Shown: positions 3,768 to 42,593, counted from the stretch's first letter. The stretch is DNA of 64,000 nt from Acidobacteriota bacterium (GCA_028876655.1 JAGWRA010000232.1:639-64638); one strand, 5' to 3'. Numbers and translations are program-made. Notes: generated by a model from the letters alone, not told the origin.

Positions 3768-3944
3768 CTGCGTCCCCCTTCACATGGGCGCGCTTGACCA
3801 TCGCACCGGATCGCCGTGCGCGCCGACGGTGATCGCGGATTCTCCCGGGTTTCGGCGGTATCCTAGCGCGCCGCTCTCACGAGTGTCAATCGGTCCAGGC
3901 CGGGTTTTCAAGGGTTTTCCGGGCGCCGGTGGTAGACTGTCGCC

Positions 3945-4292
3945 ATGGCCACCGGCACGCTCGAGACGTTCCCCAACCCAAGACCCGAACGCGAATACGA
4001 AATTGAGATCCGCTGCCCGGAATTCACCTCGGTGTGCCCGAAGACCGGCCTGCCCGACTTCGGCGAGATCCGGATCACCTACGCGCCGGGCGATCAGTGC
4101 ATCGAACTGAAGGCGTTGAAGTACTACCTCATCGAGTTCCGCAACCGCGGCATCTACTACGAGCACGTGACCAACCAGATCCTGGACGACCTGGTCGGCG
4201 CCTGCCAGCCGAGGCGGATGACGGTCGTCGGCGACTTCTCCGTGCGGGGCGGCATCAAGACGATCGTCACGGCCACCTACACGAGGGCCTGA
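3945..4292 (+). CDS. queF: NADPH-dependent 7-cyano-7-deazaguanine (preQ0) reductase, unimodular type
   Basis: Catalytic Cys loop TSVCPKTGLPDFG and QueF motif IELKALKYYL. The 115-aa size fits the YkvM subtype. Confidence 0.92.
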   Translation: MATGTLETFPNPRPEREYEIEIRCPEFTSVCPKTGLPDFGEIRITYAPGDQCIELKALKYYLIEFRNRGIYYEHVTNQILDDLVGACQPRRMTVVGDFSVRGGIKTIVTATYTRA

Positions 4293-4307
4293 CCGGACGC
4301 CCGCCCG

Positions 4308-4592
4308 GTGCGAGGCGCGATGCCCGAGCCGGAAGATTCCATCGAACTGCCGATCGAGGACACGCTCGATCTCCACGCCTTCGCGCCCCGCGACGTCAAA
4401 GCGGTCGTCCTGGACTATCTCGACGCGGCGCACGCGCGCGGCTTCCGTGACGTCCGGATTGTCCACGGCAAAGGGATCGGCGTGCAGCGGGCCATCGTGC
4501 AGGCCGCGCTGGATCGCCATCCGCTCGTCGTGGAGTTCTGGGACGAGTGGCATCTGGGCGCCACCGTCGCCCGCCTGAAGCCCGGTATGTGA
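4308..4592 (+). CDS. Smr-domain protein
   Basis: LDLHAF plus VRIVHGKGIGV (Smr LDLH / H-G-x-G signatures). Start could be GTG 4308 or ATG 4320. Confidence 0.8.
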   Translation: MRGAMPEPEDSIELPIEDTLDLHAFAPRDVKAVVLDYLDAAHARGFRDVRIVHGKGIGVQRAIVQAALDRHPLVVEFWDEWHLGATVARLKPGM

Positions 4593-40298: not shown

Positions 40299-40841
40299 TC
40301 AGCGCCAGCCTTCGCGCGCGGCGACGCTCCGGATGTGCGCCAGGTGATGGCGGCCGTGCCAGGCGTACAGCGCGGCCGTGACGTCGAGCCGGATCGGCCC
40401 GTGCTGCGGATGGACGAACTCGCGCGCCCAGTGCTCGTCGGTCATCATCCGCAGCAGCGGCACCCAGCGCCGGTGGATGGCATCCAGCAGGTCGAGGGAC
40501 GCGCCCACGGGAGTGACGCGATAGTCGCCGAGCGCCGCCCACGCATCTTCGGCGTAGGTCTTGATCGTCGGCCGGTCCTCGGTGAGCGCCCACTTGAACC
40601 GCAGGAAGCTGTTCATGTGGCTCTCCGGCACATGATGGAGGACGTCGCGGACCGTCCAGCCGCCGGGGCGGTACGGCGTGTCCAGTTGCGGATCCGACAG
40701 TCCATCGACGGCGCTCCGGAACCGCGACGGCAGTCCCGCAATCTCCTCGATCGCCTTCGCGCGGTCGGCCGCGCTCACCTGCGCCGGGCGCTGGAACCGT
40801 CCGATCGGGTACTTCAGTGTCTCGAGATCCGATGTGCCCAT
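40299..40841 (-). CDS. DinB_2 / YfiT-like metal-dependent (thiol-transferase-like) protein
   Basis: YPIGRF...GGWTVRDVLHHVPESHMN...WHGRHHLAHI matches the YfiT/BstA-type His triad. ATG 40841. Confidence 0.85.
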   Translation of the reverse strand: MGTSDLETLKYPIGRFQRPAQVSAADRAKAIEEIAGLPSRFRSAVDGLSDPQLDTPYRPGGWTVRDVLHHVPESHMNSFLRFKWALTEDRPTIKTYAEDAWAALGDYRVTPVGASLDLLDAIHRRWVPLLRMMTDEHWAREFVHPQHGPIRLDVTAALYAWHGRHHLAHIRSVAAREGWR

Positions 40842-40844
40842 ACG

Positions 40845-40873
40845 CCCCCCAATCCCTAACCCCCAATCCCGAT
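40845..40873 (-). repeat. Tandem heptamer array H6 (reverse complement of the GGGATTG type, ~4 units)
   Basis: CCCCCCAATCCCTAACCCCCAATCCCGATC. Supplies the last codons (EIGIGG) and stop of the methyltransferase gene 40856-41545. Confidence 0.75.
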
Positions 40874-41545
40874 CTCCGTCCCGCCCCTCTTCCGAAGCAC
40901 CCACGTCGTCATGCACCGTTGATTCTGCACGATCGTGGTCTTCAGGGGATCCAGCCACTCGCCGCCGAGCCGGTCCGTCGCCGCCCTCAGCGCCGCCTCG
41001 TCCACGAGATAACGCTCGGACCCATCGGGCAGCCGGTGCCGCCCGCCGCCGAGCGGCTGCACGCGCGATTCCATGCCGATGGACGAGGCGAGGCGGCAGA
41101 AGAACAGGCCGCCTGGACGCAGGACGCGCCATGATCCGTCCAGCATCGCCTGGAAGTGGGCATGGTCACGCGCGAAGTGGAGGACGGCGCTGCTGATGAC
41201 CACGTCGGCGGATGCGTCTGCAAAGCTCATCGCCTCGATCGGCTCCACGCGGAAGCGATCGGCCGGCAGGCCCGGCGCCAGCCGCGCCGCCAGCGCCCGG
41301 ACGGCGCGGATCGCCTCCGGATTCCCGTCGACGCCGCGCACGTCGTAGCCTTCGCTCAGCAGGTACTCGAGATTGCGTCCGCCGCCGCAGCCCGCGTCGA
41401 GGATCTGCATGGGTGGCGCGATCCGGCCGCGCAGGAGCTGGTCGAGCAGGTAGATGTCGATGCGGCCGAGGGCGACGAGGGACAGATTACGCCCCTTCCC
41501 GGTGCACGGTGTCGGGCGAGAAGGCGGGCAGACAGACGGCGACAT
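40856..41545 (-). CDS. Class I SAM-dependent methyltransferase
   Basis: Motif I ILDAGCGGGRN, post-I DVRGVDGNP, VISSAVLHF. The only canonical start (ATG 41545) overlaps the upstream cupin gene by 59 nt, so the true start is uncertain. Confidence 0.78.
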   Translation of the reverse strand: MSPSVCPPSRPTPCTGKGRNLSLVALGRIDIYLLDQLLRGRIAPPMQILDAGCGGGRNLEYLLSEGYDVRGVDGNPEAIRAVRALAARLAPGLPADRFRVEPIEAMSFADASADVVISSAVLHFARDHAHFQAMLDGSWRVLRPGGLFFCRLASSIGMESRVQPLGGGRHRLPDGSERYLVDEAALRAATDRLGGEWLDPLKTTIVQNQRCMTTWVLRKRGGTEIGIGG

Positions 41546-41852
41546 AGTGCGCGCCGTCCGGCCCGGGCGTGCTGTAGCGGACCCATTCGCCCGCCGGCGC
41601 GTGCACGGCCTGGCCGGCGTGCACGTCGATCGTCCCCTGCTTCGTCTCGACGCGGAGCAGCCCCGCCAGGACGAGCGTGAACTCGTCGAACGCCGGCGTC
41701 TGGGCCGGCTCCTCCCAGCCCGGCGGGCTCGTCATGCGGGCCACGCTGACCCCGGCCGTCGCGCTGTTCACCCGCCCGACGAATTCCTCGATCCGCTTCG
41801 GCTTGTTCCCGGCCGACTGGATCACCGTCGGCCGCTCGATCAATCTGGCCAT
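41487..41852 (-). CDS. Cupin-domain protein
   Basis: 121 aa with a beta-barrel pattern (GVSVARMTSPPGW...DEFTLVLAGLLRVE...VHAPAGEWVRY). Confidence 0.72.
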   Translation of the reverse strand: MARLIERPTVIQSAGNKPKRIEEFVGRVNSATAGVSVARMTSPPGWEEPAQTPAFDEFTLVLAGLLRVETKQGTIDVHAGQAVHAPAGEWVRYSTPGPDGAHYVAVCLPAFSPDTVHREGA

Positions 41853-41880: not shown

Positions 41881-42432
41881 TCAGCCCTCGCCGGGTCCGT
41901 CGGCTTCGATCTCCACGCCGAGGCCGCTGGCGATCCGGTTCACGAACGCGAAGTAGGCCACCACGGCGCCGGCGTCGTGAATCGCCAGGTCGTCGAGGCC
42001 CGCCTCGCGCAGGGCGTCGATGTCGGCGGCGTTGACGGCCGCCGGCGTCCGCGTCAGCTTGTCCGCGTAGCGCAGCAGCGCCTGCTCCCGCGGCGTCACG
42101 TCGATCCAGCCGACCGGCGCCTCGAGCAGGGCGGTGACGAGCCGGTCCTGCGCCTCGGCGGCCACGCCGTCGGCCGTGAGCATCCTACGGAGACCCGCTC
42201 CGTGATGACGGATTCAATAGTGGCAGCCGTTCAGCCCGGACACGCGCACGGCGATCAGCTCGCGCTCGCGGCGCGTCAGCGGCCCGGGCTGGTGCATCAG
42301 CTCGCGATACAGTCCGTGGTGGCCGCGCATCACGGCGGGGTGCACGGAGTGGATCTGGATGATGTGGTCGGGATCGTCCACACGCTCGGCCGGCGCGAGC
42401 GCGTCGGGAGACACGTACCGGATGAACGCCAT
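41881..42432 (-). CDS. AhpD/carboxymuconolactone-decarboxylase-family peroxidase-related protein with in-frame TGA (42214-42216): candidate selenoprotein (CxxU), otherwise a pseudogene
   Basis: ORFs 42214..42522 and 41881..42183 are in the same frame. Read-through gives ...VSGLNGCHY[TGA]IRHHGAG..., i.e. the family motif NGCxYCxxxH with TGA at the second Cys. ATG 42432 is preceded by GGAGG. A hairpin follows the TGA. Confidence 0.6.
42182..42213 (-). other. SECIS-like stem-loop immediately 3' of the in-frame UGA
   Basis: mRNA sequence is UGA AUCC GUCAUC ACGGAG CGGGU CUCCGU A GGAU. Lower stem AUCC/GGAU, 6-bp upper stem ACGGAG/CUCCGU, apical loop CGGGU starting 17 nt after the UGA. Confidence 0.45.
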
Positions 42433-42593
42433 CCTCCAACGCCTCCTCACGGCCCCCGCGCGCCGGCTCCAGCCGTGGCTGGCGGCCCGCGGGTGCCCCT
42501 GACGGTCTTGCAGGTCGTTCAAAGACGCCGCCGATGTCCGAGTGTTCGAGGGGATTGTTCACCAGCGGGCGTTGAAGCGCAAGTGCCGTGCGT

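Follow-up and report, generated by a model that had tools for sequence, protein, structure and literature searches.

Does the minus-strand locus 41881..42432 of an Acidobacteriota bacterium sequence (GCA_028876655.1, JAGWRA010000232.1:639-64638), which an open reading frame (ORF) listing divides into two small ORFs, hold a broken gene or a single gene in which an in-frame UGA codon is read as selenocysteine (Sec)? The whole stretch of 64,000 nucleotides that was analysed is referred to here as the window. In our assessment, with a probability of about 0.88, the frame 42432..41881 is a genuine Sec-encoding gene of the AhpD-like type, within the TIGR01926 family. What doubt is left lies almost wholly with the Sec machinery of the source genome. 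The gene is intact, its UGA is conserved, and the hairpin that follows the UGA is conserved, apparently under selection at the RNA level. Sec insertion in the source organism is inferred, and so are the redox partner and the substrate of the product.

The two halves given by the ORF listing, 42214..42522 and 41881..42183, share one minus-strand frame. When this frame is read from the ATG at 42432..42430 to the terminal TGA at 41883..41881, it comprises 183 codons, including the predicted Sec73. The sole internal TGA is codon 73 (42214..42216), which falls at the second-Cys position of C70-H-Y-U73, in the protein context SGLNGCHY-[TGA]-IRHHGAGLRR. The G+C content at third codon positions (GC3) was 0.89 and 0.93 for the two halves, values typical of real genes in a window of 70% GC. 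The start and the layout of the gene are the same in 52 full-length orthologues. All of them begin with M/V-A-[FYH]-I at the position aligned to ATG 42432, and therefore this ATG is taken as the true start. A putative Shine-Dalgarno-like sequence (GAGGAGG, 42442..42448, minus strand) lies 9 nt upstream of it.

For family searches, Cys was placed at the TGA in the joined protein. The match to TIGR01926 ("peroxidase-related enzyme") reached 116.8 bits (cut-off, 81.8) and covered residues 25-174, running across the TGA. This bears out the original prediction that the two ORFs form one AhpD-like domain of about 183 residues. The joined protein also matched Pfam CMD (PF02627; E = 3.5e-13), in keeping with the CMD superfamily, and the AhpD core domain TIGR00778 (47.7 bits against a cut-off of 27.8). 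It scored only 18.7 bits against the 191.95 required for true AhpD (TIGR00777), 56.7 against 175 for the AhpD_rel_CFYUT (seleno)protein NF041238, and 26.3 against 310 for the GroundWater_YciW (seleno)protein NF053654. Judged by these scores, the predicted protein is a member of TIGR01926 and lies outside true AhpD and both other AhpD-related selenoprotein families.

A scan of one genome per species yielded 63 related loci, 52 of them with a full-length orthologue at 48-85% identity. These came from metagenome-assembled genomes (MAGs) of Acidobacteriota/Vicinamibacterales, Gemmatimonadota, Planctomycetota, Eisenbacteria, SAR324, Calditrichaceae, Neomarinimicrobiota and Polyangiaceae. The codon after C-x-Y was TGA in all 53 full-length sequences (the window and its 52 orthologues) and never TAA or TAG. 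Downstream of the TGA the orthologue frames continue to the conserved C-terminus, in which the block IHDaCaiVAYFAFVNRiADGLGVElE is almost invariant. Scattered stops or frameshifts, as would be expected of a pseudogene, were seen in none of the 52. Mean pairwise identity was 62% before the TGA and 57% after it, which indicates selection on both halves. The best relative, an Acidobacteriota MAG (L028), carries an orthologue 85% identical to the window protein, and the 35 nt that follow the U of the UGA do not differ between the two genes.

The alignment also showed what replaces Sec in related proteins. Cys stands at the Sec column in the distant homologues L053 (CAYC), L061 (CHYC), L345 and L346, as well as in the solved structures PDB 2oyo and 6k40. 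The closest Cys form, P0003 (locus L344, codon TGT), has CRYC and 51% identity. The clade is thus nearly all Sec, with 53 TGA against one close Cys form. The placement of the TGA at the second Cys of a CxxC motif, proposed originally from the string NGCHY[U]IRHH, agrees with both sides of this comparison.

The hairpin proposed as a Sec insertion sequence (SECIS) was located as described beforehand, with pairing of AUCC/GGAU and ACGGAG/CUCCGU around the loop CGGGU. If the U of the UGA is numbered 1, the putative SECIS upper stem-loop occupies 17 nt (42187..42203, minus strand), with the stem A14-G19/C25-U30 and the loop C20-G21-G22-G23-U24 (42197..42193). The stem, ACGGAG/CUCCGU, begins 10 nt past the UGA and the loop begins at nt 20, after a spacer of 16 nt. 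A possible lower helix would pair A4-U5-C6-C7 (42213..42210) with G32-G33-A34-U35 (42185..42182), extending the element to 42182..42213 on the minus strand. This AUCC/GGAU pairing is present in the window, in L028, in L003 and in others; across orthologues it was paired in just 59% of cells, and C6-G33 to G6-C33 swaps were no more frequent than in the shuffle control. The bacterial SECIS (bSECIS) model (PMC13188914) allows a loop of 3-9 nt, an upper stem of 4-16 bp, a G in the first two loop positions, a UGA-to-loop distance of 16-37 nt and a free energy of -7.5 kcal/mol or lower. The window hairpin falls within these limits, with a loop of 5 nt, a stem of 6 bp and a G at loop position 2 followed by another G; its spacing of 16 nt equals the lower limit of the model. 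The energy of the named hairpin was -8.8 kcal/mol and the minimum free energy over 39 nt was -10.5 kcal/mol, both within the constraint.

The comparative data carry most of the argument. G22 and G23 never varied over the 53 sequences, and 92.5% of cells were paired in the upper stem. As a baseline for synonymous variation we used conserved four- and six-fold degenerate residues elsewhere in the gene, at which codon entropy was 1.1-2.0 bits. Within the stem the picture was different. At Gly+5, GGA was used 33 times and GGG 12 times, with no case of GGC or GGT, the two codons that together make up 59% of the background. Ala+6, which spans stem and loop, was GCG in 47 of 48 sequences (background, 40%); Leu+8 was CTC in 48 of 52 (background, 40%); and Arg+9 was CGT in 44 of 51, a codon whose background share is only 8.8%. 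Gly+7, whose third base is loop nt 24, had a normal codon entropy of 1.65 bits, and position 24 itself was variable (T 30, G 10, A 9, C 4). The synonymous sites of the stem are therefore frozen across phyla, often on rare codons (GGA, CGT), while the loop site is free. Other synonymous sites are saturated, which indicates that time enough for change has passed. As read from the alignment, this freeze is the strongest sign of RNA-level selection on the hairpin; no formal P-value is attached to it, the sequences being related by descent. It comes in addition to the spacing and the G-rich loop, originally proposed as compatible with a bacterial SECIS.

The exceptions point in the same direction. 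In L026, L046, L048, L049 and L052 both amino acids and nucleotides have changed, yet a re-registered hairpin of 5-7 bp is found at the same site, with the loop GGUCU. In L047 a G-C pair is replaced by a compensated A-U pair (GGAG/CUCC to GAAG/CUUC). In distant Cys forms, whose HHAAGL motif is similar, codon choice is ordinary and the hairpin is absent. At the SECIS position, the closest Cys form, at L344:1302-1841 (JGI metagenome 3300048500; P0003, TGT), still carries a stem, ACGGGG/CUCCGU, around a changed loop, CGAAC, and this stem is consistent with a "fossil" SECIS left by a recent Sec-to-Cys conversion. The neighbours of this Cys gene include a BrxC-like gene and a gene of 424 aa of the AhpC-TSA/redoxin type.

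Further evidence was sought in the genes for Sec synthesis and in other selenoprotein genes. A degenerate selA DNA pattern matched at least 120 loci, including genomes of Vicinamibacterales, Acidobacteriota and Gemmatimonadota, while SelA queries from Vicinamibacterales and Gemmatimonadales retrieved at least 353 and at least 105 relatives, respectively. Therefore, selA is widespread in the same lineages (Vicinamibacterales, Gemmatimonadales), which is support at the level of the lineage. Among the 280 selA matches listed, which comprise 120 of the DNA pattern and 80 of each SelA query, no MAG was shared by selA and an AhpD-like orthologue, a result that says nothing either way. Of the 120 high-GC selA loci listed, 34 (Actinobacteria, Proteobacteria and others) have a tRNA-SeC gene only a few kb away, and none of these 34 is from Acidobacteriota or Gemmatimonadota; in L184, a Vicinamibacterales chromosome, selA and selB are not neighbours. 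In Acidobacteriota and Gemmatimonadota, the genes for Sec seem to lie scattered over the genome. It can also be mentioned that in one Acidobacteriota MAG (L210:2239-2330, minus strand) ARAGORN reported, about 4 kb from selA, a 'tRNA-Arg (ccg)' of 92 nt, which is unusually long and closer in length to a tRNA with a long variable arm.

Support from within the same genomes came from a second candidate. In L011, L024 and L033, a Prx-like (AhpC/TSA redoxin) gene with its own in-frame TGA lies at most 3 kb from the orthologue (L011:4721-5779, minus strand; L024:1149-1673, minus strand; L033:1136-1672, plus strand), and another such gene was found at L160:7009-7368. The TGA of these genes stands in the motif W-U-P-[YF]-C (UxxC), with a hairpin behind it; in L036 the gene is of the Cys type. 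If this TGA is read as Sec, the Prx-like genes independently support Sec decoding within the genomes L011, L024 and L033 themselves. A Prx-like/AhpD-like gene pair was noted in the Global Ocean Sampling (GOS) study (PMC2398784), and the proximity of the two TGA-containing genes observed here echoes that pairing.

It must be noted that several results weigh against the reading as a Sec-encoding gene. ARAGORN found no tRNA gene within the 64-kb window, and motif scans of the window and the 63 loci for SelA, SelB and SelD found none; the flanks of the orthologues likewise lack a tRNA-Sec gene. No family reached the gathering threshold in an Rfam scan of the whole window, nor was there any match to a bacterial SECIS model. 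When 58 nt were folded and compared with shuffles, the z-score was 0.16, so that the single sequence is uninformative. Additionally, 264 of the 1350 TGA triplets on both strands of the window (about 20%) precede a hairpin of at least 6 bp with loose SECIS geometry; at such a chance rate in a window of 70% GC, lone GC-rich SECIS-like hairpins weigh little as evidence. The hairpin alone is not beyond chance, and its significance comes from the comparative data. Even there, RNAalifold gave an empty consensus on the 53 aligned segments of UGA plus 42 nt, and covariation in a fixed-register stem was not above the shuffle control over the same 53 sequences; covariation is nearly absent because the upper stem hardly varies. 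Finally, none of the genes near the 52 orthologues recurs as a partner, the neighbourhood being unconserved beyond L028, and the function of the product consequently rests on homology.

Two other explanations deserve some weight, both of them very unlikely. According to the first, this would be a genuine selenoprotein gene that is silent or truncated here after a recent loss of the Sec machinery. That selABCD was not located in the window or in the flanks of the orthologues fits such an orphaned gene, as does the fact that Sec-to-Cys conversion occurs in the family, L344 with its TGT and fossil hairpin being the example. Decay or conversion to Cys would then be expected, however, and the gene, the UGA and the hairpin are all intact, with the 35 nt after the U identical to those of the 85%-identical L028 and synteny with it conserved. 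The second supposes that a standard amino acid (Trp, Cys or Gly) is inserted at the UGA, whether through near-cognate suppression or under a reassigned code, with no role for Sec; it draws on two database records, P0001 and P0002, which carry Trp at the site. This has little chance of being correct: of the 52 high-GC3 frames in the window, 32 end in TGA, more than in any other stop, which shows that the code is standard and excludes a reassigned one. Moreover, the codon occupies the column of the catalytic Cys, so that a Trp or Gly residue at this point would abolish the redox centre, and read-through by a standard amino acid gives no role to the conserved hairpin of SECIS geometry or to the frozen synonymous sites.

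Less credible still, and effectively refuted by the comparison of orthologues, is a pseudogene, dead or dying after a Cys codon (TGC or TGT) mutated to TGA, or else a sequencing or assembly error. Gene callers do split the gene into two ORFs and the window shows no Sec machinery, but all 53 sequences, from several phyla, share this TGA and are free of other stops and frameshifts, with 57-62% identity on both sides and GC3 of 0.89-0.93 in both halves; as the assemblies are independent, one error common to all is impossible. An equally remote proposal, that translation stops at the UGA and restarts, so that one polypeptide of about 72 aa and another of 100-110 aa form a split AhpD-like protein, is suggested by the window ATG at 42183, which opens an ORF of 100 aa 10 codons past the UGA, and by the many such C-terminal fragments in databases, but these fragments arise because gene calling is naive to Sec stop codons, the Met at 42183 is unconserved (orthologues have I, L or V, as in RRIL and RAIL), no conserved start or ribosome-binding site follows the TGA, and the break would cut the active-site helix C-x-x-[C/U]-x3-H, with loss of His76/His77 from the restart product.

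The interpretation as a Sec-encoding gene has a direct consequence for annotation. In the protein database, most relatives are fragments comprising the C-terminal (about 105 aa) or the N-terminal (about 100 aa) part. The Trp of P0001 and P0002 (CHYW and CPYW) is evidently an artefact of gene callers, derived from a code in which TGA is Trp. The expectation that automated annotation would split the gene is thus confirmed by the public sets, in which the pieces measure about 70 and 105 aa. The correct annotation would be one selenoprotein of 183 residues rather than two hypothetical ORFs or a pseudogene, and dozens of MAGs with fragment or Trp entries need correcting in the same way. From the gene, this Acidobacteriota-like organism can also be regarded as a probable user of selenium, and the set of orthologues can serve as a teaching example of how a SECIS located in a coding region freezes the synonymous sites of its stem and spares that of its loop.

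That Sec-containing AhpD-like families were already known from surveys, as the original prediction stated, agrees with the literature. AhpD-like CxxU proteins (COG2128) were reported in 2005 by Zhang, Fomenko and Gladyshev from the Sargasso Sea as a new selenoprotein family with 27 sequences (PMC1088965). "AhpD-like 1" was among the most abundant families of the 2008 GOS analysis, with 299 CxxU sequences (PMC2398784), and a 2026 review in Applied and Environmental Microbiology lists "AhpD-like protein, TIGR01926, CxxU" in its table (PMC13188914). The window gene shares with this family the same hidden Markov model, Sec on the second Cys, a SECIS inside the ORF with G in a small apical loop, the existence of Cys homologues and the same annotation problem. 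It shows the defining features of the known AhpD-like family that were tested, and can be counted as a further, mis-annotated member of it. Since the family, the motif and the decoding mechanism have been described since 2005, the value of the present gene is mainly one of annotation, and it raises no new question. The published sets consist mostly of marine metagenome reads, whereas ours comes from high-GC MAGs of Acidobacteriota, Gemmatimonadota and Planctomycetota.

In this regard, we consider, very tentatively and as something rather doubtful, that the soil and sediment genes of these three phyla may form an almost obligately Sec branch of TIGR01926, in which the SECIS stem would lie in the codons of the catalytic H-H-G-A-G-L-R helix and whose product, in some genomes, would cooperate with an adjacent Prx-like UxxC selenoprotein. 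In such a branch, protein motif and RNA element would each constrain the other, and the AhpD-like and Prx-like UxxC pair would be an all-selenium analogue of the AhpC/AhpD relay for peroxide reduction.

With respect to other SECIS elements, the E. coli minimal SECIS is a 17-nt hairpin (nt 15-31), 11 nt away from the UGA, with G23 and U24 in its loop (PMC8659212). The window hairpin resembles that of E. coli fdhF in being 17 nt long at a similar distance from the UGA (nt 14-30) and in its invariant loop G23, and differs from it in having no bulged U17, a variable position 24 and a poorly conserved lower helix. NF041238 and NF053654 are related selenoproteins of the CMD/AhpD superfamily, in which Sec is likewise second in CxxU, and represent different subfamilies according to score.

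The predicted active-site segment, Glu58-x11-Cys70-His71-Tyr72-Sec73-x3-His77, is encoded at 42202..42261 (minus strand), and E58, C70, Y72, U73, H76 and H77 were each at least 90% conserved in 52 sequences. The spacing E-x11-C-x-[H/Y]-C-x3-H is that of the proton relay of AhpD from M. tuberculosis (Glu118/Cys130/His132/Cys133/His137) and of PA0269 (Glu36/Cys48/Tyr50/Cys51/His55) (PMC3141380). The window protein has Tyr at the position of His132, as PA0269 does, and, given its score below the TIGR00777 cut-off, its resemblance to M. tuberculosis AhpD is at the level of the motif. The best solved structures were 2oyo, the 'peroxidase-related protein' of D. geothermalis (E = 2e-24), and 6k40, DR1765 of D. 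radiodurans (E = 3e-22). Their N-x-C-x-Y-C-x-x-x-H-G-A-x-L-R aligns to N-G-C-H-Y-U-I-R-H-H-G-A-G-L-R in the window protein. Both differ from it as Cys proteins that have neither UGA nor SECIS, and the alignment spans query residues 41-173 only. A DR1765 mutant of D. radiodurans is sensitive to H2O2, and its complementation needs the cysteines of the CxxC motif (PMC8945050).

Sec would be delivered to UGA73 in place of translation termination, and Cys70 and Sec73 would form a selenenylsulfide couple acting as the redox centre, with Glu58, Tyr72 and His77 as a proton relay, by analogy with AhpD. The product is probably an AhpD-like thiol/selenol oxidoreductase involved in peroxide defence, and its likely role would be to reduce a peroxiredoxin partner, or peroxides directly, during oxidative stress. 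No AhpC or lipoamide-system partner is encoded nearby.

A search of the window for same-frame ORF pairs split by TGA gave one other candidate, at 3936-4592 (plus strand), where two ORFs of high GC3 flank a TGA. It was rejected as a selenoprotein gene because the two are ordinary neighbours, a QueF-like gene followed by a Smr-domain gene with its own ATG at 4320. No further pair of this kind was present in the window.

Around the AhpD-like gene, the upstream neighbours are a small membrane protein and a PhzF-family gene. A Cupin_2 gene (41487-41852, minus strand) lies 28 nt downstream on the same strand, and beyond it there are an S-adenosylmethionine (SAM) methyltransferase gene (40856-41479, minus strand) and a DinB_2 gene (40299-40832, minus strand). 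This gene order is common to L028 only, in which the four neighbouring proteins are 69-90% identical and follow in the same order. The SAM methyltransferase also scored above the cut-off of the TehB tellurite-resistance family (33.8 against 20.4 bits).

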